Shown here: positions 15,508 to 45,019 of the stretch, piece by piece | Layout: every line of letters begins with the position of its first letter | Position numbering within the stretch: position 1 is the first letter of the stretch | Assembly: GCA_963771435.1 (NCBI GenBank) | Contig: CAVYTF010000018.1 | Coordinates: forward strand, 88,217 to 152,216 | From: an uncultured Bacteroidota bacterium | GTDB taxonomy: Bacteria; Bacteroidota; Bacteroidia; Chitinophagales; Chitinophagaceae | Direction: 5' to 3' | DNA: 64,000 bases | Notes under the pieces: generated by a model | What the model was told of the DNA's origin: nothing | The model's database searches: none | The model's input: only the letters and a program-made list of their open reading frames with translations | Position numbers and translations under genes: made by a program

Positions 15508-16971
15508 ATGAAGAAAATACTTGTTGTTGATGATGACCGGGATATGTGTCTTTTATTGAACCGTTTTTTAACCCGTAAAGGTTATTCAGTAACTGAAATG
15601 TATGGCGGCAAAAAGGCCCTGGATCATATAGGATCTGAAAAACCTGATTTAATAATCAGTGATTTTCGTTTGGAAGATATGGATGGAATTGCCCTGCTCA
15701 CTAAAGTAAGGGCTACAGACCCTTCCATCCCTTTTATAATTATTACAGGGTATAGCGATATTAAAACTTCTGTAAATGCTATAAAGTTGGGGGCCTTCGA
15801 TTATGTGACCAAACCTCTTTTGCCCGATGAGATCTTAATAACTATACAACAAGCGTTGGCAGAACCTCCTAAAGTTGCAGTTGAAAATAAGGCACTCAAC
15901 AATCATACTCTCAAAACCAAAAAAAATGAGGCTGGCAATATTACCTATTCAGGCTCTTATATTTTTGGGGATTCTGAATCTTTCAAAAAGATCATGACGC
16001 AGGTTGATCTTGTTGCGCCAACTAATTATAGTGTCATCATTTATGGCGAAAGCGGCAGCGGCAAAGAGGCCATTGCACAGGAAGTTCATAAGCGCAGCAA
16101 ACGCAGCAATAAGCCGTTTGTGGCAATTGATTGCGGGGCCCTCTCAAAAGAGCTGGCAGCCAGTGAGTTTTTTGGCCATGAAAAGGGTTCTTTTACAGGA
16201 GCCATCAACCAGAAAATAGGAAGCTTTGAGCTTGCCAACGGGGGTACTGTTTTTCTTGACGAAGTGGCTAATCTCTCTTATGAGATACAGGTTTCCTTGT
16301 TGCGTGTGGTTCAGGAAAGGAAGATGCGCAGGATCGGCGGCCTGAAAGACATAGAACTTGATGTTCGCATCCTTATTGCAAGCAATGAAAAGCTCTGGGA
16401 CGCCGCGCGCAACGGTAAGTTCAGGGAAGATCTTTATCACCGGTTTAATGAGTTTAATATCGACATGCCCCCTTTGCGCCAGCGCAAGGATGATATAATG
16501 ACCTTTGCGGGTCATTTTTTAAGGCTTGCCAACGAGGAGTTAGGAAAAAACATTGCAGGCTTTGCGCCGGAGGTAGAGATGATATTTAAGAACTATATTT
16601 GGTATGGAAACCTTCGGGAACTTAAAAATGTGATCAAAAAAGCGGCGCTTCTTACCGAATCAGGCAGTGTGGAAGCCAGCGCTCTTCCGTTCGAGATATC
16701 TAATTACAGCAAGCTTCAGTTTTCAGAGCCTAACTCCTCCAATGCGAGCGCTCCAGTTGCCCAGAAACAGGAGGATATTACCCCAAAAAAGACCTCAACT
16801 CCTGATAATACCACATTAAAAGAGGTGAGCATTGATGCGGAATATGAACTTATTCTTAAAGCGCTTAAACAGGCCAATTATAACAAGAGCAAGGCCGCAA
16901 AGATCCTGCAAATAGACCGAAAAACCCTCTACAATAAAATGAGCCAGTACCAGGAGTTGAAAGAGATGTGA
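15508..16971 (+). CDS. Sigma-54-dependent response regulator (NtrC family)
   Basis: Receiver domain (DDDRDM...GAFDYVTKP), AAA+ sigma-54 activator domain (GESGSGKE, ESEFFGHEKGSFTGA) and a C-terminal Fis-type HTH (AAKILQIDRKTLYNKM). Confidence 0.9.
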   Translation: MKKILVVDDDRDMCLLLNRFLTRKGYSVTEMYGGKKALDHIGSEKPDLIISDFRLEDMDGIALLTKVRATDPSIPFIIITGYSDIKTSVNAIKLGAFDYVTKPLLPDEILITIQQALAEPPKVAVENKALNNHTLKTKKNEAGNITYSGSYIFGDSESFKKIMTQVDLVAPTNYSVIIYGESGSGKEAIAQEVHKRSKRSNKPFVAIDCGALSKELAASEFFGHEKGSFTGAINQKIGSFELANGGTVFLDEVANLSYEIQVSLLRVVQERKMRRIGGLKDIELDVRILIASNEKLWDAARNGKFREDLYHRFNEFNIDMPPLRQRKDDIMTFAGHFLRLANEELGKNIAGFAPEVEMIFKNYIWYGNLRELKNVIKKAALLTESGSVEASALPFEISNYSKLQFSEPNSSNASAPVAQKQEDITPKKTSTPDNTTLKEVSIDAEYELILKALKQANYNKSKAAKILQIDRKTLYNKMSQYQELKEM

Positions 16972-17016
16972 ACATGGCCCGGTACTTTCTTTGTACGTTA
17001 ACATTAATTGCTCAAA

Positions 17017-18462
17017 ATGAATGAAACCTCGCTAAATCCTGTTCGCATCCTTATCATTGATGATGATGAGGAAGACTTTTTTATCACCAGCGAATACATT
17101 AAAAACATTGACCAAGGGCATAAATTTATAGTCGAGTGGTGTTCGGAATATAAGGAGGCCCTTCATCTTATTTGTAAAGCTGCTCATCATATTTACTTTG
17201 TTGATTATCGCCTCGGCCCAAAAACCGGCCTTGACCTGATCTCTGACGCTGTAAAGAACAATTGCAACGAACCCTTTATACTTCTTACCGGCAAGGGGAG
17301 CAAGGAAATTGATATTAAAACAATGCAGGCAGGGGCGGTAGATTACCTGGTAAAAACTGAACTGAACACTGAAAAACTTGAACGGTGCATCCGTTACGCC
17401 CTTGAAAGGCACCGGTTCCTGCTGGCGCTAAAGGCCAATGAACAAAAGTTTCGCAATATTTTTGAAAGGTCGAAGGACGCTGTTTTTATAACTGATGAAA
17501 ACCTTGTGTTCAAAGATGTGAACGAGGCTACATGCAGGCTGCTTCAGTCAAGCAAAGACGAACTGCTGCAAACAAGCTTGTATGATATGCTTGCAGATGA
17601 GGAGGATCATGCATTAATTGAGCGGTCTTTGGCAGAAAAAGGGGAGGTTGACGATATAGAAGTGGAGTTTTTAACCAAAGACAAGGACAATATTGGCATA
17701 TTGACCATCACGCGGCAAGCAGATCCGGGCAGAGAGGTATTCATGCAGGGCATCATTCACGACATCACCCATCTTAAAAAAGCAGAACGCGCCACGCTGC
17801 AGGCCGAAAAGCTAAAAGCTGCCGGGCGCTTTGTGCAAACCCTTGCCCACGAGGTGCGCAACCCGCTGAACAACATCAATCTTGCCCTGGAACAGTTAAA
17901 TGCAGAAATAAAAGACGAAAACAGCGAAGTATTTTTGGAAATAATAACACGCAACAGCAACCGCATCTCCTCTTTAATTACCGAGCTGCTCAATACCAGC
18001 CGCCCCATAGACACGATGCTGGAAAAAACCTCTTTGCAAAACGTGCTGCAGCAGAGCGTCACGACTGCTATGGACAGGATAACGCTGAACCGGATCCACC
18101 TGCAAACGCATTACGGCAACGACGTGGCATATATAATGGGTGACATTTCCAAACTCAAGATCGCATTTTTAAATATCATCATCAACGCAATAGAAGCCAT
18201 GGAGCCGGACACAGGAATTTTAGCTATTAGCATTGAATCAGATGCACTTCAGCATAAAGTATTACTAAGCGATAACGGTATCGGCATAAGCGAAGAAAAC
18301 CTGACGCACCTTTTTGAACCTTATTTCACCTCAAAGAGAAACGGCATGGGCCTTGGCCTTGCCTCCACCCTAAACATCCTGCAGTCCCATAAAGCCTTGG
18401 TGGAAGTAGATTCCAAAGCGGGAAAAGGGACTACTTTTACTATTTTGTTTCAAAAAGCATAA
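17017..18462 (+). CDS. Hybrid sensor: N-terminal receiver + PAS + histidine kinase (no TM segment)
   Basis: Receiver domain (ILIIDDDEEDF...), PAS domain, H-box LAHEVRNPLNNI, and N/G boxes (DNGIGI, GMGLGL). The ORF is open from TTG 17008, with ATG at 17017. Confidence 0.85.
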   Translation: MNETSLNPVRILIIDDDEEDFFITSEYIKNIDQGHKFIVEWCSEYKEALHLICKAAHHIYFVDYRLGPKTGLDLISDAVKNNCNEPFILLTGKGSKEIDIKTMQAGAVDYLVKTELNTEKLERCIRYALERHRFLLALKANEQKFRNIFERSKDAVFITDENLVFKDVNEATCRLLQSSKDELLQTSLYDMLADEEDHALIERSLAEKGEVDDIEVEFLTKDKDNIGILTITRQADPGREVFMQGIIHDITHLKKAERATLQAEKLKAAGRFVQTLAHEVRNPLNNINLALEQLNAEIKDENSEVFLEIITRNSNRISSLITELLNTSRPIDTMLEKTSLQNVLQQSVTTAMDRITLNRIHLQTHYGNDVAYIMGDISKLKIAFLNIIINAIEAMEPDTGILAISIESDALQHKVLLSDNGIGISEENLTHLFEPYFTSKRNGMGLGLASTLNILQSHKALVEVDSKAGKGTTFTILFQKA

Positions 18463-21212: not shown

Positions 21213-21974
21213 TTACAACTTTACTAGGTAGCTAAGTGTAACGGTCGCTGCACCTGTATTGTTTTTGCCGTCTTCAGAATATTTTTGTATATTCAGGAAA
21301 CCATAATTACCCCCTGCTGTTAACTCGAATTTACCTGTTTTCGTCGCTAATGCTAGGCCCAAGCCTCCTTGTACCCCCACATTAAATTTATGTATCTGGC
21401 TTGTTATATCTACTGTCGTATCAAAATTGGTCGGTTCAGGTAAAGGCAATTGCTCCATTTCTGCAGCGTCTGCATACAATGGGCTTGAACCGCTCGTTAC
21501 TTGCTTTGCATTTAAGAGATAACCTGCATAGGGACCTGCTCCCACAAAAAATGACCACGTTTTATTTAAAGGAAAATTAAAATCGACTATCACAGGCAGT
21601 TCCAGGTAATTTAATTTGGCTACACTGTTATAGGTGGCGTAAAGATAATCAGGTACAGGCTCCCCAACAGCTTCAAAATACTGAGCAAAATTACTTCCCG
21701 GTATTGCCTGAACTCCATCCTTTTTGCCTCCCTGGGATGCATAATTCAATTCTACATGCAACGAGATAAGATGCGAACATTTCTTCTCTGCTACCACTCC
21801 AAAATAAGGCGCCTCGCGGGAAGAATACCCACTACTTACAGGATTGCTTGTGCCCGAGCTTAGGTTGGGAATGCTTAGCCCCCCTTTAACTCCCAAATAG
21901 AATTGTGAAAAGGAAGGTGTTGAAGCTAAGACCAAAAAAACAGCGACAAATAAGAGGTTAAAATTTGTTTTCAT
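21213..21974 (-). CDS. Outer-membrane beta-barrel (porin-family/OmpW-like) protein
   Basis: Start taken at MKTNFNLLFVAVFLVLASTPSFSQ (signal peptide). It has an alternating beta-strand pattern and ends ...TLSYLVKL. Confidence 0.7.
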   Translation of the reverse strand: MKTNFNLLFVAVFLVLASTPSFSQFYLGVKGGLSIPNLSSGTSNPVSSGYSSREAPYFGVVAEKKCSHLISLHVELNYASQGGKKDGVQAIPGSNFAQYFEAVGEPVPDYLYATYNSVAKLNYLELPVIVDFNFPLNKTWSFFVGAGPYAGYLLNAKQVTSGSSPLYADAAEMEQLPLPEPTNFDTTVDITSQIHKFNVGVQGGLGLALATKTGKFELTAGGNYGFLNIQKYSEDGKNNTGAATVTLSYLVKL

Positions 21975-22138
21975 TTTGATTAATTTAAAAGTGAAAATAC
22001 GAAATAAACAGATAAACAATATTGTTAGAAGCAAAGTTTTGAATCAAATATATAAACAGTGATTTACACGCTATTTGCAAATAAACTAAAAAGCCATTTC
22101 TCCAACAAGAAATGGCAAACTTTTTTGATGAAATTATT

Positions 22139-22948
22139 CTACACACCACCCATTACATACATGGCAGTAAGTGTGGGTGTAGGGCTACCTCCTTTCTTTT
22201 CCAGCGTAATAGCAAATGCTTGTGCAGAAGGTATATTTTTCATTTTGCATAAGCCGGTGCAGTTGTCAATAACTCCTGCGTCAATCGGTTTGCCATTAAC
22301 AATTGCCCAAAGCTGGTATTGTTTATCGTTTGCCGCTTGTGGCAAACTGTTTTGAAGTAGGTATACATCCTTTGTTTTTGTATCCCAGTAAATGGTAGCA
22401 AGATCCTCAGGGCTTTTTAACCCTTTCATTTTCACTACTTTCATCAGGGTGTCAGACATCATTAGCATACTCTGGCTCAACTCGTTTGCCTTTGTCTGAA
22501 AAAGATCATTGCTTGCCTGCAAAGTATTTTTCTCTAACAGCAATGCGTCATACTTATCATTAGTGGTGGTATAATTGGTATAATAATAATAATTCATGCC
22601 CGCACTAACTATAAATAAAACAATAGCCGCTGCTGCAATAAACTGCCATCTTTTTATAGAAGCTGAAGCATAATTTTCATTTGAAGGCATAGGAACAACA
22701 ATCGCGTTTTTTTCCTCTTCAAACTCATCTTCTAGAGCCATCATTAATTTCCCCTTAATTTCAGCAGGAGGCGTTACAGCATTTTCAAAAGCAGTTCTTT
22801 CCAGCGATTCAGCAAAATCATCTACTGCCTTTTTTATTTCAGCATATTGGTTACAAAGCAACTCTACTTCAGCAGCTTCTTCAACACTGCTCAAGCCCAG
22901 CACGTAGCTTTCTATGATCCCGCTTTCTATGTATGCTTTTGTATCCAC
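22139..22948 (-). CDS. Anti-sigma factor (RskA-like C-terminal domain)
   Basis: 269 aa. N-terminal anti-sigma helices, a single TM (WQFIAAAAIVLFIVSAGMNYYY) and the C-terminal KQYQLWAIVNGKPIDAGV motif of the RskA family. It lies immediately downstream of the ECF sigma gene. Confidence 0.75.
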   Translation of the reverse strand: MDTKAYIESGIIESYVLGLSSVEEAAEVELLCNQYAEIKKAVDDFAESLERTAFENAVTPPAEIKGKLMMALEDEFEEEKNAIVVPMPSNENYASASIKRWQFIAAAAIVLFIVSAGMNYYYYTNYTTTNDKYDALLLEKNTLQASNDLFQTKANELSQSMLMMSDTLMKVVKMKGLKSPEDLATIYWDTKTKDVYLLQNSLPQAANDKQYQLWAIVNGKPIDAGVIDNCTGLCKMKNIPSAQAFAITLEKKGGSPTPTLTAMYVMGGV

Positions 22949-22952
22949 TTTT

Positions 22953-23519
22953 TTATTTCACTATTTCACGTAATTTAATAAGAGCCGCACGCAGTCTCGT
23001 TTTTACTGTTCCTAAAGGAATATTAAGCATGTTTGAAACTTCTTCCTGTGTGTAGCCCTCAAAATAAGAAAGCTCTATTAAAACTTTATATTCTTCTTTC
23101 AGCAGGTTGACAATTTTTCTTAATCCTATTTTATCAATATTTATATTTGTGCTTTCTCCTGCTTCATATACGGCTTCCGTTAACTCTCGGTTTTTCTGGC
23201 TTTGCTGATAATTTTTACTGCGTAATAGATCAATTGACGAATTTCTGGCAATATTCATCATCCACGTAAATAATTTCCCCTTAGTACTGTCATAGCTTTC
23301 CATCTGCCTCCAAATTTTTACAAATACTTCCTGCAACACATCATCAGCCATATCTTTATCAGGAACGATAGATAATATAACAGTGTATAACGAGCCTGAA
23401 TAATTATCGTACAAATAGCCAAACGCGCTTTGCTGCTTTTGTTTCAGCAAAACTATTAGTTCAGATTCAGAGAGTTTTATTATCTCAGGCAAAATAGCAA
23501 CGCGTTTAAGGGAGATCAA
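22953..23519 (-). CDS. ECF-type RNA polymerase sigma factor (sigma-70 family)
   Basis: 188 aa with region 2 ([13 protein letters not shown]) and region 4 ([25 protein letters not shown]). Confidence 0.85.
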
Positions 23520-25604: not shown

Positions 25605-28193
25605 TTACCTCGCCAGCACCATCTTCTTCGTATCGATCAGCTTCCCGTCAATCAATAAACTATATTGATACATACCCGCAGCCATTTCACCCCCGCTGAT
25701 AACCTGTTTCCCATACCCGCTATTGGCAAGCGTAAACGTTTTTAATGTATGCCCTGAAATATCTGTTATCATAAGCGCTGCATTATGAAAATCCTGTGGA
25801 ATATAGTAGCTTATATAAGAACTGCCGTTAAATGGGTTAGGTACATTCTGGTCAAGCCTTGGTTGGTCTGTAATAGTTGTCATTTGCTGGCTGCTTATTG
25901 TTCGTTGCATGTTTGATGTAAAGCTATTGCAGCATTGGCTCATGGCTGACTGCATCTGTGTAATGGTGTTTTTTAGATCACTCATTTGTTGCTGCAATGC
26001 AGTAACAGTGTTTTGCAATGGTTCCACAATATTTTTCAAAGAATCGTTCTCTACGGATAATTCCTGCACTGCTTTTACCAGCGGCACTACAAATTCACTG
26101 TAACGCAGGCTATACAGATCCTGCTCATTCTGTGGCTTTACCACACCGCTGAAATCGTAGTTGATCTTTTCTGCTGCATTTTCTACATCCTGGGCAAGAA
26201 AGCCCGTCATCTGCTTTTTTTCAAGGTCATATTTACCCGGAAAATCTACGTCAGCATTCTTCCCGTTGACTGTTTTACCTGCATACATCATTTGATCTTC
26301 TTTGTGTATATCAAGCTTATAGGTCACCGGCCTCAGCAGGTTAATAAAAGCAAGCCCCGGCACATTCTGTTGAATATTATTCTTTATCCGTCGGTCGCTG
26401 TAGGTGCTGAAGTTTACCTCCCCTCTGATAACGGTAACACTTCCATCGCCGATCTCCACCATATTACTTGAACTTGCACTCGAACCAACATCATACCCAA
26501 GCCCGGTCCAATTAGTTAATGTGGCAGTAGTTGGGTAAGCACGGAATCCAATACCGGTATTATAGTTTCCTGTTGTGTTGGTGGAAAGAGCATTTGCTCC
26601 AATAGCCGTATTATTTCCCCCCGTAGTGTTACTGATCATCGCTTGGTAACCGTCCACAGTATTATCGGCACCTGACGTATTTAAATAAAGAGTTTTACTG
26701 CCAATAGCTGTATTTGCTATTCCTGAATTATTACTATACAAAGCGGAATCACCAACGGCAACCTGGTTGCTGATTGTAAGGCTATTAAATAAAGTTTGTA
26801 CTCCGATCGCCACATTACTATAACCCGTGGTATTGTTGTATAATGAATTGAATCCGCTTGCAGTATTAGTATTTCCCGTAGTGTTTTCGTCGAGAGACCC
26901 ACTGCCATCAGCACTATTGTACATTCCTGTGGTATTATAGGAAAGGGCATCTTCTCCGTTTGCAGTATTATAGCTACCGGTAGTGTTGTTATATAGCGCT
27001 GCAAGTCCATTTGCAGTGTTATTATTCCCCGTGGTGTTATAATAAAGAGCTTCTCCCCCGTTTGCAGTATTGTAACTTCCCGTATTGTTGTTTATAAGGG
27101 CATCTTCTCCATTTGCCGTATTATAACTTCCTGTTGTATTAACAAATAGCGCAGATTCCCCATTTGCTGTATTATAATTTCCTGTAGTGTTGAAAAATAG
27201 CGCAGACTCCCCATTTGCCGTATTATCAATTCCTGTAGAGTTTTCATAAAGGGCACCAAAGCCAGTAGCAGTATTATCATCTCCTGTTGTATTGTAATAA
27301 AGACCTTGATAACCATTTGCAGTATTTTCACTTCCGGTAGTGTTTGAATAAAGCGCCTGGTATCCAGTGGCAATATTATAGTTTCCCGCAGTGTTTGAAT
27401 AAAGCGCCTGGTAACCATTGGCGCTGTTATAAACTCCGATTGTGTTTGAATAAAGAGACTGGTAACCTATAGCCACATTGTACGCTCCAGTTATATTTAA
27501 ATATAATGATTGATAACCATCAGCCGTATTCTGGCCTCCGGTAGTGTTTGAATGAAGTGCATTATATCCATTGGCCGTATTTTGGCTTCCGGTGGTGTTT
27601 GAATATAGTGCAGAATAACCTGTTGCTTGATTACCTGCACCCGTTGTATTGGAATACAGCGCCTCATACCCTACCGCCGTAAGATTGCTCACAGTGCTGT
27701 TAAAGAGCGTACCATACCCAACAGCAGTATTGTTGCTGCCGCTTACATTCGTATAAAGCGATTGGCCGCCATTTGCAAGGTTATAACTGCCCGTCGTGTT
27801 ATAATTTAGCGTTTGGCGCCCGATCCCGGTATTGTATTGCCCCGTCGTGTTGTATTGCAATGTTGTAGCCCCGTTCGCAACGTTAAACGAACCCGTAAGG
27901 CTAACTCCCCCTAATGCAGCATATCCAAGTGCGGTATTTTCGATTGGCGGATTACTGCCTGAAGCGTTTTGCAGGCATAGGTATCCAATGCCCGTATTAT
28001 AATGGCTGCCCGTATAAGTACCCTCAACAATACCTCCCTTCCTGCCGTCAAGAACAAAATTTAATGGAAATGCATTTGTAGTGCCCAAAACATTTCCGCT
28101 AACAGCTGCATTACCTGCCAGGCTCCAGCTCTGTGCAAATACAGCCTGTGTTATTACTAATAACAAGGCTCCGAAGAATACAATTTTTTTCAT
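25605..28193 (-). CDS. T9SS-sorted fibre protein, paralog 1 (NTANG/NTTG repeats + S74 tail-fibre chaperone domain + T9SS CTD)
   Basis: Start at MKKIVFFGALLLVITQAVFA/QSW; the ORF extension to 28271 runs through the upstream gene's terminator. It has 17-aa repeats, then SDRRIKNNIQQNVPGLAFINLLRPVTYKLD...GFLAQDVENAAE...LVKAVQEL (Peptidase S74 signature), a coiled coil, and the CTD LDQNVPNPFNGSS...YQYSLLIDGKLIDTKKMV. Confidence 0.85.
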   Translation of the reverse strand: MKKIVFFGALLLVITQAVFAQSWSLAGNAAVSGNVLGTTNAFPLNFVLDGRKGGIVEGTYTGSHYNTGIGYLCLQNASGSNPPIENTALGYAALGGVSLTGSFNVANGATTLQYNTTGQYNTGIGRQTLNYNTTGSYNLANGGQSLYTNVSGSNNTAVGYGTLFNSTVSNLTAVGYEALYSNTTGAGNQATGYSALYSNTTGSQNTANGYNALHSNTTGGQNTADGYQSLYLNITGAYNVAIGYQSLYSNTIGVYNSANGYQALYSNTAGNYNIATGYQALYSNTTGSENTANGYQGLYYNTTGDDNTATGFGALYENSTGIDNTANGESALFFNTTGNYNTANGESALFVNTTGSYNTANGEDALINNNTGSYNTANGGEALYYNTTGNNNTANGLAALYNNTTGSYNTANGEDALSYNTTGMYNSADGSGSLDENTTGNTNTASGFNSLYNNTTGYSNVAIGVQTLFNSLTISNQVAVGDSALYSNNSGIANTAIGSKTLYLNTSGADNTVDGYQAMISNTTGGNNTAIGANALSTNTTGNYNTGIGFRAYPTTATLTNWTGLGYDVGSSASSSNMVEIGDGSVTVIRGEVNFSTYSDRRIKNNIQQNVPGLAFINLLRPVTYKLDIHKEDQMMYAGKTVNGKNADVDFPGKYDLEKKQMTGFLAQDVENAAEKINYDFSGVVKPQNEQDLYSLRYSEFVVPLVKAVQELSVENDSLKNIVEPLQNTVTALQQQMSDLKNTITQMQSAMSQCCNSFTSNMQRTISSQQMTTITDQPRLDQNVPNPFNGSSYISYYIPQDFHNAALMITDISGHTLKTFTLANSGYGKQVISGGEMAAGMYQYSLLIDGKLIDTKKMVLAR

Positions 28194-28235
28194 GGCTTTT
28201 AATTTTAAAACAAGGTAAGGGATTTTTATTAACGA

Positions 28236-28268
28236 AATAAAAAAAGCCACTCCTTTCAGAATGGCTTT
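28236..28268 (-). terminator. Rho-independent terminator of paralog 2
   Basis: The minus strand reads AAAGCCA-ttctgaaaggag-TGGCTTT followed by a T-run, immediately after the stop of 28303..30819. Confidence 0.7.
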
Positions 28269-28302
28269 CAATTCTCAATTCTCAATTTTCAATTATAACT
28301 TC

Positions 28303-30819
28303 TCAATTTGCCTTCACCATCTTCTTCGTATCGATCAACTTCCCGTCTATCAGCAAAGAATACTGGTACATACCCGCTGCCATTTCAGTGCCGCTGATAA
28401 TTTGCCTTCCATACCCGATGTTAGCAAGAGGATATGTTTTTAATGTATGCCCTGAAATATCAGTAACAATAAGAGCTGCATTGTGAGAACCCTGCGGAAT
28501 ATAATAGCTGACATACGAACTCCCGTTAAACGGGTTAGGCACATTCTGGTCAAGCCTCGGCTGGTCAGTAATTGCAGTTACCTGCTTATCACTTCCCGGC
28601 GCCTGCATAGACGAAGAAAAGCTATTACAGCACTGGCTCATCGCTGATTCTATTTGACTGATTTTTGCATTTACATTATCTAACTGTTGTTGTAGCGCTG
28701 TAACTGTGCTTTGCAATGGTTGCATAATGTTCTTCAACGAGTCTATCTGTTGTTGTTTATCGGTATTCGTAGCGCTCAACTCTTGTACTGCCTTCACCAG
28801 CGGCATCACAAACTCAGCATACCGCAAACCATACAAGTCTTTGCTGTTCTTAGCAGCATCAACGCCACTAAAGTTATAGTTCATTTCTTTTGCAACCTTT
28901 TCTACATCCTGCGCTATAAATCCTGTGTAAACAATTTGCTCTTTTGCACTGCGCGCAGCTAATTTCTGCTGTGTAGGTTGTATGACCTTCCCGTCCTTAT
29001 CTTTATGAACAGGCGGCTGTATTATTCTATCAGCAGCATCAAGGTCAAGGTTGTAAGTTATTGGCTGCAATTGGTTAATGAAAGCCAACCCTGGCACATT
29101 TTGCTGTATATTTTTCTTCACCCTGCCATCGCTTATATTGGTCCAGTTTGCATAGCCACCAATACTGGTCTGTTCGCCATCACCTATCCGTACCTGGTTG
29201 GTTGCAGTAATTATTGCGCCTGAGCCAAAGGAGCTTGCATCAGTAAACCCATCTGCATTTACGTCAGCGCCAAGACCATCCGCCGTGAGATTGACTCCTG
29301 TATAATTGTTTTCCAGGGCACTAGCTCCATTGGCCGTGTTACCACTTCCTGTAGTGTTGGATAAAAGGGCATAGTTCCCGGTTGCAGTATTCTGATAACT
29401 CGTAGTATTGGAGCTAAGGGCGCTACAACCATTTGCAGTATTCTGATAACCTGTAGTGTTAGCATAAAGAGCGTAATAACCGTTTGCAATGTTATTAAAC
29501 CCCGTAGTGTTATACTGAAGGGATTGTTGTCCATTTGCAGTGTTATTACTCCCTGTAGTGTTATAATAAAGGGCTTCAGCTCCATTGGCAGTATTATACT
29601 CCCCCTTAGTGTTATAATAAAGGGCTTCATAACCATTGGCAGTGTTGTCTTCCCCGGTAGTGTCGTAGTAAAGGGCTTTATAGCCATTTGCAGTGTTTTG
29701 AAACCCCGTAGTATTGGAATAAAGGGCATTAACTCCAGTCGCAGTGTTGTAACTTCCACTGGTGTTAGCAAAAAGGGCATACGCTCCATATGCAGCATTA
29801 TCATACCCCGACACATTTGAATAAAGAGATTGATAACCGTTTGCAGTGTTTTCAATTCCTGTGGTGTTGGCAGTAAGGGCTGCATATCCATTGGCAGTGT
29901 TGTAATTCCCGGTAGTGTTCGCAGCAAGTGCGTATGCCCCATTGGCTGCGTTATTTTTCCCTGACGCATTTACATAAAGAGACTGATAACCGTTTGCAGT
30001 GTTGTAACTCCCCGTGGTGTTGGAAGCAAGCGCCTGCATCCCATTGGCGGTATTGTTGCTCCCTGTGGTATTATGCAAAAGGGCAGCTCCCCCATTTGCA
30101 GTGTTACTGCTTCCTGTGGTGTTGAAATAAAGCGCTGTATATCCATTCGCCGTGTTTTCAATTCCCGTAGTGTTGGAAGTAAGCGCTGCATAACCATTTG
30201 CAGTATTGTCCCCCCCTGTTGTATTCAAATAAAGGGATTGATAACCGGTAGCTACATTGCCGGCCCCCGTTGTATTTGAGTACAAAGATTCATACCCCAC
30301 TGCCGTAAGATTGCTCACCGTGCTGTTAAAGAGCGTACCATACCCAACAGCAGTATTGTTGCTTCCGGTCACATTCGTATAAAGGGACTGACCGCCATTT
30401 GCAAGGTTATAACTGCCCGTTGTGTTATAATTAAGCGTTTGGCGCCCGATCCCTGTATTATATTGCCCGGTCGTGTTGTATTGCAATGTTGTAGCTCCGT
30501 TCGCAACGTTAAACGAACCCGTAAGGCTAACTCCCCCTAATGCAGCATATCCAAGTGCAGTATTTTCTATCGGTGGGTTACTGCCTGAAGCGTTTTGCAG
30601 GCACAGGTACCCGATGCCCGTATTATAATGGCTGCCCGTATAAGTACCCTCTACAATACCTCCCTTTCTGCCGTCAAGAACAAAGTTTAATGGAAATGCG
30701 TTGGTCGTCCCTAACACATTACCGCTAACAGCTGCATTGCCTGCCAGGCTCCAGCTTTGTGCATAAACAGTCTGCATTGCTATTAATAGCAGTGCTGCGA
30801 AGAATACAATTTTTCTCAT
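28303..30819 (-). CDS. T9SS-sorted fibre protein, paralog 2
   Basis: Start at MRKIVFFAALLLIAMQTVYA/QSW (ATG 30817-30819). Same architecture as paralog 1. The S74 Ser codon (SDGRVKKNI) is at 29131-29133 and the CTD is about 28306-28554. Confidence 0.85.
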   Translation of the reverse strand: MRKIVFFAALLLIAMQTVYAQSWSLAGNAAVSGNVLGTTNAFPLNFVLDGRKGGIVEGTYTGSHYNTGIGYLCLQNASGSNPPIENTALGYAALGGVSLTGSFNVANGATTLQYNTTGQYNTGIGRQTLNYNTTGSYNLANGGQSLYTNVTGSNNTAVGYGTLFNSTVSNLTAVGYESLYSNTTGAGNVATGYQSLYLNTTGGDNTANGYAALTSNTTGIENTANGYTALYFNTTGSSNTANGGAALLHNTTGSNNTANGMQALASNTTGSYNTANGYQSLYVNASGKNNAANGAYALAANTTGNYNTANGYAALTANTTGIENTANGYQSLYSNVSGYDNAAYGAYALFANTSGSYNTATGVNALYSNTTGFQNTANGYKALYYDTTGEDNTANGYEALYYNTKGEYNTANGAEALYYNTTGSNNTANGQQSLQYNTTGFNNIANGYYALYANTTGYQNTANGCSALSSNTTSYQNTATGNYALLSNTTGSGNTANGASALENNYTGVNLTADGLGADVNADGFTDASSFGSGAIITATNQVRIGDGEQTSIGGYANWTNISDGRVKKNIQQNVPGLAFINQLQPITYNLDLDAADRIIQPPVHKDKDGKVIQPTQQKLAARSAKEQIVYTGFIAQDVEKVAKEMNYNFSGVDAAKNSKDLYGLRYAEFVMPLVKAVQELSATNTDKQQQIDSLKNIMQPLQSTVTALQQQLDNVNAKISQIESAMSQCCNSFSSSMQAPGSDKQVTAITDQPRLDQNVPNPFNGSSYVSYYIPQGSHNAALIVTDISGHTLKTYPLANIGYGRQIISGTEMAAGMYQYSLLIDGKLIDTKKMVKAN

Positions 30820-30862
30820 GGCTTTTAATTTTTGAACAAGGTAGGGGATTTTTATTAACGAA

Positions 30863-30894
30863 ATAAAAAAAGCCACCCTTTCAGAATGGCTTTT
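30863..30894 (-). terminator. Rho-independent terminator of paralog 3
   Basis: AAAAGCCA-ttctgaaaggg-TGGCTTTT plus a T-run on the minus strand. Confidence 0.7.
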
Positions 30895-30927
30895 AATTCT
30901 CAATTCTCAATTTTCAATTATAACTTC

Positions 30928-33648
30928 TCAATTTGCCTTCACCATCTTCTTCGTATCGATCAGCCTCCCATCAATAAGCAAAGAATACTGGTACATTCCT
31001 GCCGCCATCTCGCTCCCGCTTATAACCTGCTTCCCGTATCCGCTGTTAGCAAGCGCAAACGTCTTCAATGTATGCCCCGAAATATCCACAACCATCAACT
31101 GTGCATTATGAAACCCTTGTGGAATATAATAGCTGATATACGAACTCCCGTTAAAAGGGTTCGGCACATTCTGGTCAAGTCTGGGCTGGTCTGTAATAGC
31201 CGTAACCTGTTTATCGCTAACCGGCGCCTGCATAGCCGAAGAGAAACTATTACAACACTGGCTCATAGCCGATTGCATTTGGGAAATAGTATTTTTTAGA
31301 TCGTTTAATTGTTGCTGTTGTGCATCAAGCTGTTCTTGTTGTGTATCAACCCTGGTATTCAAAGCTGTATTAGTTTGTTTCAGCGAATCATTCTTCACAC
31401 TCAACTCCTGCACTGCCTTCACCAGCGGCACCACAAACTCAGCATACCGCAAACCATACAGATCCTTACTATTCTTTGCAGCATCAACGCCGCTAAAATT
31501 GTAATTCATACCCTTTGCTGCTTTCTCTACATCCTGCGCTATAAACCCGGTATAAACAATTTGCTCTTTTGCAGTACGCGCAGCTAATTGTTCCTGTGTT
31601 GGCTGTATAACATTTCCTTTAGCATCTTTATGAACATGAGGCTGCACTATCTTGTCCGCAGCATCAAGGTTAAGATTATAAGTAACTGGTTGCAATTGGT
31701 TAATGAATGCAAGCCCCGGTACATTTTGTTGTATATTTTTCTTTACCCTGCCATCACTTATATTGCTCCAACCTACATAACCGCCAATACTGGTCTGGTC
31801 TTCATCCCCAATTACTGTAGAGTAACTTGCTGTAAGATATGCTTGGTAGCCAAAGGCGCTTGCATCAACAAATCCACCTGCATTTACGTCAGCCTCAAAA
31901 CCCACCGCTGTTAGACTATTCCCTGCAATGTTTGAATAAAGGGCTTCAAGTCCATTTGCAGTGTTATAATACCCCGTAGTGTTTTGAGCAAGGGCTAATT
32001 CCCCGTTTGCAGCATTCTGATAACCCGTAGTGTTGAAAGATAGGGCGCTATTACCATTGGCAGTATTATCACTTCCTGTGGTATTGGCAGATAGGGCGTT
32101 ATAACCATCGGCAGTATTATGCCCACCAATAGTATTTGCATAGAGTGTGAGAACACCATTTGCAGTATTATAAGCTCCTATAGTATTATCCTGAAGGGAT
32201 TGTTGTCCATTCGCAGTGTTATTACTCCCCGTAGTGTTATAATAAAGGGCATCAGCTCCATTGGCAGTATTATACTCCCCCGTAGTGTTATAATAAAGGG
32301 CTTCATACCCATTGGCAGTATTGTTCTCCCCCGTAGTATCGTAGTAAAGGGCTTTATAGCCATTTGCAGTATTTTGAAACCCCGTAGTGTTGAAATAAAG
32401 GGCTTCATAACCATTTGCAGTGTTTTGACCCCCCGTGTTATTATAGTAAAGGGCAGCATACCCGCTTGCAGTATTGGCAGTTCCCGTAGTGTTGAAATAT
32501 AGGGCATATATTCCATTTGCGGTATTATTATTCCCTGTCGTATTAAGATAAAGGGCTTGCATCCCGGTTGCAGTGTTGTTGTTTCCCGTCGTATTAGTAA
32601 AAAGAGCTTTATATCCATTTGCAGTGTTGAAGCTCCCCGTAGTGTTGACAGAAAGGGCATAGGCTCCATTGGCAGCGTTATTGCCTCCCGTGGTGTTGGC
32701 AGAAAGGGCATCATACCCATTTGCAGTGTTGTAACTCCCCGTGGTGTTCGCAGCAAGGGCATACGCTCCATTGGCAGCGTTATCATTCCCTGACGCATTT
32801 GTATAAAGAGATTGATAACCGTTTGCGGTATTGTAATTCCCCGTGGTGTTGAAAGCAAGCGCCTGCATCCCATTGCCAGTATTATTGCTTCCCGTGGTAT
32901 TATGCAAAAGGGCGGATACCCCATTTGCAGTATTGCTGCTTCCCGTAGTGTTGAAATAAAGCGCAGATACCCCATTTGCAGTATTACTGCTTCCGGTAGT
33001 GTTGGCATATAGGGCTAAATAACCATTTGCAGTGTTATCCCCTCCAGTTGTATTCAAATAAAGGGATTGATAACCTGTAGCCACATTACCCGTACCAGTC
33101 GTATTCGAATACAACGATTCATACCCTACCGCCGTAAGATTGCTCACCGTGCTGTTAAAGAGCGTACCATACCCAACAGCAGTATTGTTGCTTCCGGTCA
33201 CATTCGTATAAAGGGACTGCCCGCCATTTGCAAGGTTATAACTACCGGTCGTGTTATAATTAAGCGTTTGGCGCCCGATCCCGGTATTGTATTGCCCGGT
33301 CGTGTTGTATTGCAATGTTGTAGCTCCGTTCGCAACGTTAAACGAACCTGTAAGGCTAACTCCCCCTAATGCAGCATATCCAAGTGCAGTATTTTCTATC
33401 GGTGGGTTACTGCCTGAAGCGTTTTGCAGGCACAGGTACCCGATGCCCGTATTATAATGGCTGCCCGTATAAGTACCCTCTACAATACCTCCCTTCCTTC
33501 CGTCAAGAACAAAGTTTAATGGAAAGGCGTTGGTCGTCCCTAACACATTACCGCTAACAGCCGCATTACCTGTCAGGCTCCAGCTCTGTGCATGCACAGT
33601 CTGCATTGCTATTAATAGCAGTGCTGCGAAGAATACAATTTTTCTCAT
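30928..33648 (-). CDS. T9SS-sorted fibre protein, paralog 3 (longest, ~906 aa)
   Basis: Start at MRKIVFFAALLLIAMQTVHA/QSW (ATG 33646-33648). Same architecture as the other paralogs. Confidence 0.85.
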   Translation of the reverse strand: MRKIVFFAALLLIAMQTVHAQSWSLTGNAAVSGNVLGTTNAFPLNFVLDGRKGGIVEGTYTGSHYNTGIGYLCLQNASGSNPPIENTALGYAALGGVSLTGSFNVANGATTLQYNTTGQYNTGIGRQTLNYNTTGSYNLANGGQSLYTNVTGSNNTAVGYGTLFNSTVSNLTAVGYESLYSNTTGTGNVATGYQSLYLNTTGGDNTANGYLALYANTTGSSNTANGVSALYFNTTGSSNTANGVSALLHNTTGSNNTGNGMQALAFNTTGNYNTANGYQSLYTNASGNDNAANGAYALAANTTGSYNTANGYDALSANTTGGNNAANGAYALSVNTTGSFNTANGYKALFTNTTGNNNTATGMQALYLNTTGNNNTANGIYALYFNTTGTANTASGYAALYYNNTGGQNTANGYEALYFNTTGFQNTANGYKALYYDTTGENNTANGYEALYYNTTGEYNTANGADALYYNTTGSNNTANGQQSLQDNTIGAYNTANGVLTLYANTIGGHNTADGYNALSANTTGSDNTANGNSALSFNTTGYQNAANGELALAQNTTGYYNTANGLEALYSNIAGNSLTAVGFEADVNAGGFVDASAFGYQAYLTASYSTVIGDEDQTSIGGYVGWSNISDGRVKKNIQQNVPGLAFINQLQPVTYNLNLDAADKIVQPHVHKDAKGNVIQPTQEQLAARTAKEQIVYTGFIAQDVEKAAKGMNYNFSGVDAAKNSKDLYGLRYAEFVVPLVKAVQELSVKNDSLKQTNTALNTRVDTQQEQLDAQQQQLNDLKNTISQMQSAMSQCCNSFSSAMQAPVSDKQVTAITDQPRLDQNVPNPFNGSSYISYYIPQGFHNAQLMVVDISGHTLKTFALANSGYGKQVISGSEMAAGMYQYSLLIDGRLIDTKKMVKAN

Positions 33649-33693
33649 GGCTTTTAATTTTTGAACAAGGTAGGGGATTTTTATTAACGAAAT

Positions 33694-33723
33694 AAAAAAA
33701 GCCATCCTTTCAGAATGGCTTTC
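33694..33723 (-). terminator. Rho-independent terminator of paralog 4
   Basis: AAAGCCAT-tctgaaagg-ATGGCTTT plus T7 on the minus strand. Confidence 0.75.
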
Positions 33724-33749
33724 AATTCTCAATTTTCAATTATAACTTC

Positions 33750-36005
33750 TCAATTTGCCTTCACCATCTTCTTCGTATCTATCAGCTTCCCATCAATAAG
33801 CAAAGAATACTGGTACATTCCTGCCGCCATCTCGCTTCCGCTGATAACCTGCTTCCCGTATCCGCTGTTAGCAAGCGCAAACGTCTTCAATGTATGCCCC
33901 GAAATATCCACCACCATCAACTGTGCACTATGAAACCCTTGTGGAATATAATAACTGATATACGAACTCCCGTTAAAAGGATTAGGCACATTCTGGTCAA
34001 GCTTTGGTTGGTCAGAGATATTGCTGACTGCTGACTGCATTCCTGAAGAAAAACTATTGCAGCACTGGCTCATTGCCGATTGCATCTGTGCAACAGTGCT
34101 CTTAAGATCATTTAACTGCTGTTGAAGGGTATCGATCTTTGCATCTTTCACCTCATTTATAGCAGATAACTCCTGCACTGCCTTCACCAGCGGCACCACA
34201 AACTCAGCATACCTCAAACCATACAGATCCTTACTGTTCTTTGCAGCATCAACACCACTAAAGTTATAGCTTACTTTTTGCGCTGCTTTCTCCACATCCT
34301 GTGCTATAAAGCCTGTATAAACAATTTGCTCTTTAGCACTGCGCGCAGCCAATTGTTCCTGTGTTGGCTGTATGGTATTGCCTTTAGCATCTTTATGAAC
34401 AGGCGGTTCTACTATCTTGTCCGCAGCATCAAGGTTAAGATTATAAGTAACTGGTTGCAATTGGTTAATAAATGTCAATCCCGGCACATTTTGTAGTATA
34501 TTCTTCTTCACTCTGCCATCACTTATATTGGTCCAGTTTGCATAACCGCCGATACTGGTGATCTGATTATCCCCAATGCGTACCTGGTAACTTGCTGTGG
34601 CAAGTGCATCGTAGCCAAAAGCGCCGGCATCAGTATAACTGGTATCATTTACATTAGCATTATACCCATCGCCGGTGTTATTACTGCCAGAAGTGTTGTA
34701 ATTAAGCGCGCTACCGCCATTTGCAGTGTTATAAATCCCCCTGGTGTTGAATTCAAGGGCGCCCTCTCCATGGGCAGTATTGTAGCCTCCCGTGGTGTTG
34801 AACTGGAGAGCCCCATTTCCATTGGCAGTATTTGAGTTCCCTGTAGTATTATCATAAAGGGCCTCGTTCCCGTTTGCTGTGTTATAATTCCCCGTGCTAT
34901 TGTAACCAAGAGAGTAGGCCCCTGTTGCGGTATTGTAACCTCCCGTGGTGTTCGTGCCCAGGGAAGACACCCCATTTGCAGTATTTTGAGTTCCTGTGGT
35001 GTTGTAATATAGGGCCTCGTTCCCGTTTGCTGTGTTATTACTTCCCGTAGTGTTGTATGCGAGGGCAGACTCCCCGTTGGCAGTGTTTTCGTTTCCTGTA
35101 GTGTTGTTAACAAGAGCCAGGTGTCCATTTGCAGTGTTATAATTACCCGTGGTATTAGACAAAAGCGCAAAATATCCGTTTCCGGTATTGTAACTCCCCG
35201 TGGTGTTATAATAAAGGGCGCTATACCCATCTGCAGTGTTATCATTTCCCGTGGTGTTGGAATACAGCGATTGATAAGCGGTAGCTGCATTATAACTCCC
35301 CGTGGTATTGAAATAAAGGGTCTGGTAACCGGTAGCTGCATTATAACTCCCCGTTGTGTTGCTATAAAGGGCCTTGTTCCCGTTTGCAGTATTTTGATAG
35401 CCTGTAGTATTAAAATAAAGAGATTGATAACCGGTAGCCACATTCCCTGTACCTGTTGTATTTGAATACAGCGCCTCATACCCCACTGCCGTAAGATTGC
35501 TCACCGTGCTGCTATACAGCGTACCGTACCCAACAGCAGTATTGTTGCTGCCGGTCACATTCGTATAAAGGGACTGACCGCCATTTGCAAGGTTATAACT
35601 GCCCGTCGTGTTATAATTAAGCGTTTGGCGCCCGATCCCGGTATTGTATTGCCCTGTCGTGTTGTATTGCAATGTTGTAGCTCCGTTCGCAACATTAAAC
35701 GAACCCGTAAGGCTAATTCCCCCTAATGCAGCATATCCAAGTGCGGTATTTTCTATCGGTGGGTTACTGCCTGAAGCGTTTTGCAGGCATAGGAACCCGA
35801 TACCCGTATTATAATGGCTGCCTGTATAAGTACCCTCAACAATACCCCCTTTCCTGCCGTCAAGAATAAAGTTTAATGGAAAAGCATTGGTAGTGCCCAA
35901 AACATTACCGCTAACAGCTGCATTGCCTGCCAGGCTCCAGCTTTGTGCATGTGCAGCCTGTATCATAATTAGAAACACCGCTGTAAAGAAGATGTTTTTT
36001 TTCAT
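33750..36005 (-). CDS. T9SS-sorted fibre protein, paralog 4 (shortest, 751 aa)
   Basis: MKKNIFFTAVFLIMIQAAHA/QSW. Same N-terminal module, repeats, S74 signature (SDGRVKKNILQNVPGLTFINQLQPVTYNLN), coiled coil and CTD. Confidence 0.85.
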   Translation of the reverse strand: MKKNIFFTAVFLIMIQAAHAQSWSLAGNAAVSGNVLGTTNAFPLNFILDGRKGGIVEGTYTGSHYNTGIGFLCLQNASGSNPPIENTALGYAALGGISLTGSFNVANGATTLQYNTTGQYNTGIGRQTLNYNTTGSYNLANGGQSLYTNVTGSNNTAVGYGTLYSSTVSNLTAVGYEALYSNTTGTGNVATGYQSLYFNTTGYQNTANGNKALYSNTTGSYNAATGYQTLYFNTTGSYNAATAYQSLYSNTTGNDNTADGYSALYYNTTGSYNTGNGYFALLSNTTGNYNTANGHLALVNNTTGNENTANGESALAYNTTGSNNTANGNEALYYNTTGTQNTANGVSSLGTNTTGGYNTATGAYSLGYNSTGNYNTANGNEALYDNTTGNSNTANGNGALQFNTTGGYNTAHGEGALEFNTRGIYNTANGGSALNYNTSGSNNTGDGYNANVNDTSYTDAGAFGYDALATASYQVRIGDNQITSIGGYANWTNISDGRVKKNILQNVPGLTFINQLQPVTYNLNLDAADKIVEPPVHKDAKGNTIQPTQEQLAARSAKEQIVYTGFIAQDVEKAAQKVSYNFSGVDAAKNSKDLYGLRYAEFVVPLVKAVQELSAINEVKDAKIDTLQQQLNDLKSTVAQMQSAMSQCCNSFSSGMQSAVSNISDQPKLDQNVPNPFNGSSYISYYIPQGFHSAQLMVVDISGHTLKTFALANSGYGKQVISGSEMAAGMYQYSLLIDGKLIDTKKMVKAN

Positions 36006-36176
36006 ATTTAATATTTTTTATAATGGGGAATACAGGATAAGAGAAACATTGCTTTTTTGCAATGCCTTAACAATACTAAGCGCTTTATTACTATGAAACA
36101 AATTTTCTTCTTCGCAATATCTCATAACATAGCGTTCGCATAGGAAGGGCATCGCAGTTAATTCAACCATTAACCA

Positions 36177-36420
36177 TTTTCCTATCGAAGGGTGGGACAC
36201 CCATCGAAATTTTCCTATCGATGGGTGTCCCCACCCATCGAAATTTCCTATCGGTGGCAATTGAGCCTAACCGATCAACCATTCAACTAAATATAATTGA
36301 ACGAGCTTTCCTATCGGTGGGTGTCCCACCCATCGAAATGATTTTTTTGCTTTCTGCGCTTTAGAGCCAATTGAGTCTAACCGGTCAACCATTCAACTAA
36401 ATATAATTGAACGAGCTTTG
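36177..36420. repeat. Cluster of 34-bp palindromic units plus a ~54-bp direct repeat
   Basis: TTCCTATCGATGGGTG-tcc-CACCCATCGAAAT-type hairpin units lie at about 36177, 36211, 36245 (interrupted) and 36307. The direct repeat CAATTGAG(C/T)CTAACCG(A/G)TCAACCATTCAACTAAATATAATTGAACGAGCTTT lies at 36259-36310 and 36368-36419. Confidence 0.85.
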
Positions 36421-44107: not shown

Positions 44108-45019
44108 ATGTCTATTGAAGTTTCGCAATTACTAAAAATATATGGGGAACAGAAAGCGGTAAATGATATTTCTTTTGCTATTAGAAAAGGAGAAATAACT
44201 GGCTTCCTTGGGCCAAACGGCGCAGGTAAAAGCACAACTATGAAAATTATTACAGGCTATCTTTTACCTGACGCAGGCAATGCTAAGATTTGTGACCTTG
44301 ATGTAACAAAATATCCAATTGAAGTAAAAAAGAAAATAGGGTATCTGCCTGAATCCAATCCATTGTATTATGAAATGTACGTAAAAGAATATCTTGGATT
44401 TGTAGCAAACGTGCATAAGACAGAAAACCCAAAACAAAAAATTGAAAATGTTATAGAATTGACCGGATTGCAAATTGAGCAGCATAAAAAAATAGGTCAA
44501 TTATCCAAGGGTTATAAACAACGTGTTGGGCTTGCTGTATCGCTTGTGCATGACCCTGAAGTACTAATTTTAGATGAACCTACAAACGGTCTTGATCCAA
44601 ACCAGATCGTTGAAATAAGGAACATAATAAAAGAACAGGGTAAAAGCAAAACAGTTTTGTTTTCGTCGCATATTTTGCAGGAGGTTCAGGCAATTTGCGA
44701 CCGTGTTATTATTATTAATAAAGGAAGGATCGTTGCTGATGATACAATAGGAAACTTAAAGCAAAACAACAAAAACAATATTGTAAAAATTACTTTCCGA
44801 GAGGCTATCGATGCTTCAAAATTGCAACAGGTAACAAGTGCAAGGGACATTTTAAAGGAAACCGATCATACCTGGAAACTTATTTCTGCCAACACTTCTG
44901 AAACCAGGAAACAATTACTACAATTAGCTTTAGAGCAAAATTTGAATGTCATCTCTCTGCAAACTGAAGGCAATAGTTTGGAAGAAATTTTTAGTTCGCT
45001 CACTCAAAATGAAAATTAA
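44108..45019 (+). CDS. ABC transporter ATP-binding protein (GldA-like)
   Basis: Walker A GPNGAGKST, signature LSKGYKQRV and Walker B LILDEPT. Its size and N-terminus resemble the gliding-motility GldA. No permease gene is adjacent. Confidence 0.75.
   Translation: MSIEVSQLLKIYGEQKAVNDISFAIRKGEITGFLGPNGAGKSTTMKIITGYLLPDAGNAKICDLDVTKYPIEVKKKIGYLPESNPLYYEMYVKEYLGFVANVHKTENPKQKIENVIELTGLQIEQHKKIGQLSKGYKQRVGLAVSLVHDPEVLILDEPTNGLDPNQIVEIRNIIKEQGKSKTVLFSSHILQEVQAICDRVIIINKGRIVADDTIGNLKQNNKNNIVKITFREAIDASKLQQVTSARDILKETDHTWKLISANTSETRKQLLQLALEQNLNVISLQTEGNSLEEIFSSLTQNEN

Follow-up and report, generated by a model that had tools for sequence, protein, structure and literature searches.

The subject of this analysis is a set of predicted fibre genes in a 64-kb stretch of DNA (the window; contig CAVYTF010000018.1, positions 88,217 to 152,216) from an uncultured bacterium of the Chitinophagaceae (Bacteroidota). 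Four head-to-tail open reading frames (ORFs) on the minus strand occupy positions 25605-36005 and are named here D, C, B and A in the order in which they are transcribed. An initial annotation had described them as four tandem genes of one architecture that fill 16% of the window, and both statements hold: the ORFs lie where it had placed them, the array accounts for 10.4 kb of the 64 kb, and all four proteins share a layout of signal peptide, N-terminal cap (N-cap), 17-residue repeats, Peptidase S74 domain, Gln-rich coil and, at the very end, a predicted type IX secretion system (T9SS) C-terminal sorting domain (CTD). The genes, and for D the modules within the gene, are as follows.

33750..36005 (-): fibre gene D, 751 amino acids (aa), 24 repeat frames; first transcribed
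35946-36005 (-): gene D, signal peptide
35751-35945 (-): gene D, N-cap
34524-35750 (-): gene D, shaft of 17-aa repeats
34167-34523 (-): gene D, S74 domain
34014-34166 (-): gene D, Gln-rich coil and linker
33753-34013 (-): gene D, predicted T9SS CTD
30928..33648 (-): fibre gene C, 906 aa, 32 repeat frames; S74 domain 31402-31758, predicted CTD 30931-31191
28303..30819 (-): fibre gene B, 838 aa, 28 repeat frames; S74 domain 28777-29133, predicted CTD 28306-28566
25605..28193 (-): fibre gene A, 862 aa, 30 repeat frames; S74 domain 26058-26399, predicted CTD 25608-25868

Each protein opens with a Sec signal peptide that is recognisable by inspection in all four, as had been claimed: residues 1-20 combine a basic n-region (MKK or MRK), a hydrophobic core and an AxA site (MKK..AHA, followed by QSW), which places Gln at +1. 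The N-cap comes next (residues 21-85, QSWSLAGNAAVSGNVLGTTN...), a non-repetitive segment of 65 aa, and from residue 86 the repeat NTAnGyxALyxNTTGxx runs in perfect 17-residue register with zero indels. Counted from residue 86 to the putative cleavage site the frames number 24 in D, 28 in B, 30 in A and 32 in C, the final three or so being degenerate, and the variable number of 17-aa units that had been remarked upon is thereby given exact values. Directly after the shaft the S74 domain spans SDGRVK (SDRRIK in A) to LVKAVQEL; the coiled-coil stretch that follows is 51-70 residues long, contains 14-19% Gln and carries a conserved QCC motif at the end of the coiled coil, and the last 87 residues form the predicted CTD with its PNPF, GxY and K..K motifs.

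The S74 signature reported at the outset corresponds to a genuine domain match, since Pfam Peptidase_S74 (PF13884) scores 30.4-36.2 bits in 4/4 proteins (cut-off 22) and the model begins exactly at the Ser of the predicted autocleavage motif. In this motif the Ser would be the nucleophile, with a Lys five residues downstream. The cleavage motifs, and the QCC motifs at the ends of the coils, are located as follows.

34506..34523 (-): predicted autocleavage motif of D (SDGRVK)
31741-31758 (-): predicted autocleavage motif of C
29116-29133 (-): predicted autocleavage motif of B
26382-26399 (-): predicted autocleavage motif of A (SDRRIK)
34059..34067 (-): QCC motif of D
31252-31260 (-): QCC motif of C
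28627-28635 (-): QCC motif of B
25929-25937 (-): QCC motif of A

Within the autocleavage motif the Ser, Asp, Arg and Lys are invariant across 45 homologues of about 45-55% identity, and they are conserved in phage fibres too, which argues that cutting, and not folding alone, has been selected for. Endosialidase mutants in which the Ser is replaced by Ala still fold. The QCC motif is shared with the close relatives P0002, P0003, P0007 and P0026 and is not family-wide. Cys-Cys knots staple other trimeric fibres, and by analogy the conserved Cys-Cys pair may form an interchain disulfide staple between CTD-bearing chains.

The most informative evidence on the origin of these proteins comes from viruses. 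A tblastn search against 50,697 phage records returned 78 with a match, the best being tail-module proteins of Methylophilales phage Venkman, Roseobacter phage CRP-1 and Pelagibacter phage HTVC111P. Venkman gp55 aligns to residues 66-631 of the query at 36.7% identity (E 6e-47), and as a group the tail-fibre alignments show 35-37% identity and take in about 75% of the protein, from about residue 66 to residue 631; HTVC111P gp52 is annotated as a 'putative tail fiber protein'. Once translated, gp55 and gp52 both contain the 17-aa repeat NTAxGxxALxxNTTGxx, followed by SDxRDK, GL.F.N..PV, GF.AQ and LV.A..EL, and they end a few residues past the S74 helix. PHROG families of tail spike, tail fibre and virion structural proteins match at E 1e-44 to 1e-96, among them phrog_4636 (tail spike; E 7e-61 and 5e-82), phrog_23837, phrog_6002 and phrog_1980. 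The structural model of residues 21-494, which comprises the shaft and leaves out S74, has 74 matches among viral models at E <= 0.001 (E 6e-16, a TM-score of 0.66 and 40% identity for the best); many of these models are labelled S74 or ICA and derive from uncultured phages, and some belong to giant viruses. The shaft fold, often together with S74, is found among the models in BFVD for giant viruses of eukaryotes, namely Tupanvirus, Bodo saltans virus, Medusavirus, Gaeavirus and Edafosvirus. Judging from these models the cassette has a very wide distribution in the viral world. Because the identical 17-aa repeat already precedes S74 in phage tail fibres, shaft and chaperone form a single viral fibre cassette; its bacterial additions are a signal peptide, an N-cap, a CTD and a coil that is longer than in the phage proteins.

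This bears on the earlier proposal that YadA/Hep_Hag-like repeats had been combined with a phage chaperone domain. The phage tail-fibre ancestry stands, and the joining of YadA-type repeats to a phage domain does not, the shaft itself being of viral type. The YadA_head/Hep_Hag hidden Markov model (HMM) finds no match in the full proteins at E <= 0.1, nor in the isolated repeat region of A at E <= 10. The nearest solved folds to residues 21-494 are the YadA-like heads of BpaC and BoaA (Foldseek against the PDB; probability 0.97-1.0, TM-score up to 0.54, none at E <= 0.001), and the resemblance to YadA thus seems to be a real but distant likeness of fold, not the source of the repeats. A YadA_head match in the homologue P0101 was considered as support for a YadA connection and set aside, as it falls on a separate stretch of 14-aa repeats. 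Sequence searches of the PDB with the protein and with a 45-sequence profile gave no meaningful match, and a full-length Foldseek search of the PDB was dominated by immunoglobulin-like matches to the CTD, which say nothing of the shaft.

The assignment of the C-terminus to the T9SS rests on several lines of evidence of unequal strength. When the final 87 aa of A, B and D are scanned in isolation, the type-A model TIGR04183 scores 23.4-26.4 bits, which passes the cut-off of 23 marginally and agrees with the CTD claimed for these proteins; PF18962 is annotated on many homologues. In the AlphaFold2 model of D the CTD is a beta-sandwich (strands 680-749, predicted local distance difference test (pLDDT) 83-88) that matches the CTD of NucA inside a T9SS complex (8glk_D, TM-score 0.69; Foldseek). 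The domain is, then, marginal by HMM and is probably a T9SS type-A sorting domain in view of the homologue annotations and the fold match. Elsewhere in the window, at 44108-45019 (+), lies a GldA equivalog, the ATPase of a gliding-motility ABC transporter (431.8 bits, cut-off 402.6), which marks a gliding-type Bacteroidota host and lends indirect support to a host of the T9SS type.

The monomer model of D has a mean pLDDT of 73.5. In it the shaft is one chain wound into a regular beta-solenoid, each repeat making a turn (pLDDT >90 from about residue 170 to residue 400), the S74 region is mixed alpha/beta and of moderate confidence, and the coil is one long helix (residues 604-648), which together with its Gln content bears out the Gln-rich coiled coil of the initial annotation. 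If a rise of about 4.8 Å is assumed for each turn, the four paralogues would have shafts of roughly 11-15 nm. A trimeric state is suggested by the precedent of established S74 fibres and of YadA-like heads.

How the four paralogues have diverged differs greatly from module to module, A being the most divergent of them. Residues 1-204 are 89-99% identical, which matches the near-identical N-terminal module noticed earlier, and the CTD is 85-97% identical; S74 follows at 54-92%, the repeats at 44-63%, the coil at 40-59% and the 50 residues preceding the cut site at 31-62%. The ratio of non-synonymous to synonymous divergence (dN/dS) is below 0.15 (about 0.01-0.14) in all alignable modules, which amounts to purifying selection, and the four genes do not look like decaying copies. 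In the mature N-cap dN is 0-0.02 and dS 0.14-0.59 (dN/dS 0-0.05). Gene conversion as the sole cause of the near-identical N-terminus was rejected on account of this synonymous divergence: a segment frozen in spite of it is not merely the product of recent conversion and indicates a shared constraint, and the pattern points to, for example, one common partner or a capping role.

The reading that we favour, at a probability of about 0.55, is that these genes encode T9SS-exported, S74-assembled fibres that would cut themselves free of their own sorting signal, and that they are cellular copies of a viral tail-fibre cassette. Each chain would be exported by Sec, with the signal peptide cut after AxA and an N-terminal Gln left behind. 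In the periplasm the S74 chaperone and the Gln-rich coiled coil would join three chains, perhaps stapled by the Cys-Cys pair, and the folding so nucleated would proceed from the C- to the N-terminus to give three parallel beta-roll shafts, one turn per 17-aa repeat. The type-A CTDs would carry the assembly through the T9SS translocon, and the Ser/Lys dyad would cut each chain at SD(G/R)R(V/I)K, so that the mature fibre parts from the chaperone-coil-CTD fragment and is either shed or held at the cell non-covalently only. More speculatively, the near-invariant N-terminal module with its N-cap may be the best candidate for a shared surface for docking or re-docking. Since the repeats vary at surface positions and differ in number, the array would yield four adhesin-like fibres, on the surface or outside the cell, that are unlike in length and binding specificity. 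What has been observed is the domain content and its order, the homology to phage fibres, the purifying selection and the separate terminator-bearing spacers; trimer formation, cleavage, the sequence of events, the dependence on T9SS and binding are argued by analogy from parts whose behaviour is known in other proteins.

Several points weigh against this proposal. Self-cleavage before export would strip the sorting signal, and the order of events is therefore a gap in the model; as cutting severs the shaft from the CTD, cleavage would have to await export, or the cut fragments would have to keep together until they have crossed the outer membrane. In the monomer model the shaft already folds confidently as a lone chain, and the model is thus uninformative on the trimer. 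TIGR04183 is absent from the full-length scan of the proteins, its score on the isolated CTDs is marginal, and PF18962 remains below its cut-off (18-19.5 against 27). None of the core T9SS genes occurs within the window. A 2023 review of T9SS effectors does not contain the words trimer, oligomer, fibre or fiber. Furthermore, at least two members of the family, P0019 and P0101, stop after the coil and lack a CTD, and routing through T9SS is therefore not universal in the family.

The gap in the order of events would vanish if the proteins were permanently anchored adhesins resembling trimeric autotransporters. S74 would then be a non-cutting folding and trimerisation module, a PorU-type sortase would remove the CTD and join the new C-terminus to anionic lipopolysaccharide (A-LPS), and the coil would serve as a stalk that keeps the shaft and the N-terminal head at a distance from the cell. 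The polarity of the proteins is that of trimeric autotransporters, with a C-terminal sorting or anchoring end, a coiled-coil stalk and a beta-roll towards the N-terminus, and cargo with a type-A CTD is covalently attached to A-LPS in Porphyromonas gingivalis (2023 T9SS effector review). However, a Ser/Lys dyad that is invariant, along with the adjacent Asp and Arg, in 45 divergent homologues and in phage fibres is hard to explain without catalysis, and we regard permanent anchoring as unlikely.

The design is not a rare one, and in this respect the initial annotation was overstated. A word-indexed protein search gave at least 7,933 matches at E <= 0.001 among 8,000 scored candidates. An exhaustive search of representatives clustered at 50% identity, for which the query was the last 281 residues (the final 25 shaft residues, S74, coil and CTD), matched this C-terminal cassette in 20,849 cluster representatives at E <= 0.001, in 10,148 at E <= 1e-10 and in 2,120 at E <= 1e-30; among the best 150 of the 20,849 the cassette forms a contiguous block at the protein's own C-terminus in 150/150. 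Generic names are already in use, 'tail fiber domain-containing protein' at NCBI and 'trimeric autotransporter adhesin' or 'hypothetical protein' at JGI. In species-representative genomes, where the best match has 56% identity, the relatives are mostly Chitinophagaceae (Parafilimonas, Ferruginibacter, Segetibacter and Limnovirga soli KCS-6), and further relatives occur in Bacteroidales, Saprospiraceae, Ignavibacteria and Chlorobiota. Among cultured relatives, homologues are present in Limnovirga soli KCS-6 (loci L015 and L048) and in Gaetbulibacter sp. M235 (L053). The four genes in the window are ordinary members of a very large family, which in P0101 and P0019 mixes differing N-terminal and export modules. 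PF26696, a family listed for many homologues, was set aside, as it describes another N-terminal module (NTFPSTGSAGIGT...GFYYY) that is absent from the four window proteins. The statement that the class lacks a functional characterisation agrees with the literature searched, in which no functional study of the family and no paper treating S74 together with a T9SS CTD was found; one proteome paper lists a 362-aa 'tail fiber domain-containing protein' of Tannerella forsythia among the identified proteins, without comment. The family is named and catalogued and its parts are known, and it is the combination that is without a functional description in that literature.

The genomic surroundings of the relatives offer one recurrent theme. 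Tandem arrays of two to six copies occur in 27 of 78 related loci, and a two-component system is the sole recurrent neighbour across 79 related loci, lying within 10 kb in 35 of them. In 16 of the 79 a two-component gene, usually the response regulator, ends no more than 700 nt upstream of the fibre gene on the same strand (L002, L004, L005, L008, L012-L014, L036, L039, L040, L052, L056, L059, L062, L064 and L077). The sensor kinases vary, carrying Reg_prop with Y_Y_Y or TPR, and the regulators are of the LuxR/GerE or LytTR types. The array in the window has no adjoining two-component system; the nearest sensor and regulator genes (15508-18462) lie 7 kb off and are no more than generically similar.

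That dedicated two-component systems often control the genes in relatives would also fit a role against phages or competitors. Shed fibres might mimic phage receptor-binding proteins and block receptors on the producing cell or on its neighbours, acting as a decoy or in exclusion of phages and competitors, or they might scaffold other secreted factors. A role of this kind would suit the clear homology to phage receptor-binding fibres and the multi-copy arrays with variable shafts. Against it stand the zero match to PADLOC defence families, the absence of toxin and enzyme domains from the domain scans of the four proteins, the finding that two-component systems are the only conserved partner in the 79 loci, and selection that in the alignable modules is purifying rather than arms-race-like. 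An anti-phage or anti-competitor function is on this evidence distinctly improbable. As a separate observation, 58678-59631 (+) bears a weak resemblance, below the threshold (77 bits, cut-off 180), to a restriction endonuclease with affinity for phosphorothioated DNA.

The neighbours of the array also speak to the possibility that the proteins belong, as structural tail fibres, to a phage-derived particle whose genes lie in another part of the genome (a prophage, a tailocin or an extracellular contractile injection system), and that they are assembled in the cytoplasm. The strong PHROG matches to tail and virion proteins are what one would expect of such fibres, and loci of extracellular contractile injection systems are reported to include, as accessory genes, S74 genes and LuxR-type regulators, with S74 proposed as the tail-fibre equivalent (PMC8213781). 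Yet the array is flanked by an unknown ORF and by genes for a peptidyl-prolyl isomerase, GcvH, an extracytoplasmic function (ECF) sigma/anti-sigma pair with an outer-membrane beta-barrel protein, and phosphoenolpyruvate carboxylase; no phage, tailocin, contractile-sheath or injection-system gene was found within the 64 kb, and genes for phage particles or injection systems are not recurrent in the 79 related loci. With a predicted Sec signal peptide and a predicted T9SS CTD on 4/4 proteins, both of which phage fibres lack, a place in such a particle is highly improbable, and export of the fibres through T9SS, followed by self-cleavage, is the reading retained here. The sigma-factor cluster, which lies 2-4 kb downstream of gene A at 21213-23519 (-), consists of the ECF sigma factor, an anti-sigma factor (RskA_C) and the outer-membrane beta-barrel protein.

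The organisation of the array itself deserves comment. The three intergenic spacers are 101-109 nt long and nearly identical, and each contains a 12-bp hairpin, then a T-run and then the A/T-rich 5' region of the next gene. Hairpin-bearing, conserved spacers of this kind are the reason why D, C, B and A look like separate transcription units rather than a single operon. The spacers have misled gene calling. ORFs of A, B and C that start at TTG were rejected, since their extensions translate the terminator hairpin of the preceding gene, and the true starts of A-D are likely to be the MKK or MRK codons. The homologue P0002 is held in public databases with the identical spurious N-terminal extension (MKAILKGVAFFISLIK...); gene callers therefore repeat the TTG-start error in databases. 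Upstream of D, at a distance of 170-400 nt, lies a cluster of palindromes and repeats in which the 33-nt unit (TTTCCTATCGrtGGGTG...CACCCATCGAAAT) has no other copy within the window; the cluster may be an operator array or other regulatory site, or else represent a small repeat element, and is a putative part of the locus.

33697..33723 (-): terminator-like hairpin and T-run after D
30868-30894 (-): terminator-like hairpin and T-run after C
28242-28269 (-): terminator-like hairpin and T-run after B
33649-33732 (-): spurious TTG extension of C
30820-30903 (-): spurious TTG extension of B
28194-28271 (-): spurious TTG extension of A
36173..36419 (strand not assigned): three 33-nt palindromic units and two 52-nt direct repeats

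Within the repeat regions there are alternative-frame ORFs of 236-276 aa (29259-29969, 32178-33008 and 34649-35479), and several on the plus strand as well. They are most likely products of a repetitive, stop-poor composition and no genes.

A broader interpretation, which we put forward tentatively and regard as rather doubtful, would extend the argument from the four genes to the family at large: an unstudied and widespread class of oligomeric T9SS cargo, in which S74 assembles a periplasmic trimer and then acts as a post-export release switch, tandem arrays diversify length and specificity, and two-component systems set the timing in many relatives. If these ideas are correct, the T9SS moves pre-assembled trimeric fibres, which would widen current views of this secretion system, and bacteria have re-used a viral self-cleaving chaperone to build and to release surface fibres. 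With tens of thousands of members in Bacteroidota of soil, freshwater and gut, such fibres may be a major overlooked surface or extracellular structure involved in adhesion, aggregation or the interplay with phages. With a predicted cleavage site placed between the passenger and its sorting signal, the order of folding, export and cutting becomes a clear question that can be tested. Even if the proteins turn out to be plain adhesins, genes that are now just 'tail fiber domain-containing protein' would gain a proper description.

The predicted fibres share features with several known systems and coincide with none of them. The classic phage fibres with a C-terminal chaperone are the K1F endosialidase and the L-shaped tail fibre pb1 of T5. 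The closest phage counterparts of the window proteins, Venkman gp55, HTVC111P gp52 and the CRP-1 protein, have the same 17-aa shaft repeat followed by an SDxRxK-type S74 domain and a short helix. Unlike the window proteins, they have no signal peptide, no WxLxGN N-cap and no T9SS CTD, their coil is very short, and their genes sit among tail genes, whereas the window genes are found among housekeeping genes and, with a signal peptide and a CTD, depart from the context of virion tail fibres. Among solved structures the heads of trimeric autotransporters (BoaA, 3s6l; BpaC, 7o23; YadA, 1p9h) come nearest to the shaft model, which is a single-chain parallel beta-roll built from a short repeat rich in Asn, Gly and Ala; the polarity, with a coiled-coil stalk and a C-terminal export end, is common to both, and JGI calls some homologues 'trimeric autotransporter adhesin'. 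The window proteins differ in a repeat period of 17 instead of 14, in the lack of both a YadA_head match and a YadA-type beta-barrel as C-terminal anchor, and in their predicted export by a T9SS CTD in place of self-insertion.

With type-A cargo of the T9SS (RgpB, ChiA and NucA) the window proteins appear to share the Sec signal peptide and the C-terminal beta-sandwich of about 80 aa with PNPF, GxY and K..K. The known cargo is described as monomeric enzymes and adhesins, whereas here the passenger is a fibre of viral type, and a putative self-cleaving domain is set between passenger and CTD. Finally, the S74 genes at loci of extracellular contractile injection systems (PMC8213781) resemble the present family in the S74 domain and in the frequency with which LuxR/GerE regulators and histidine kinases adjoin its members. 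They differ in that injection-system genes are absent from the window and from the 79 related loci, and the signal peptide and CTD of the window proteins point to stand-alone export.

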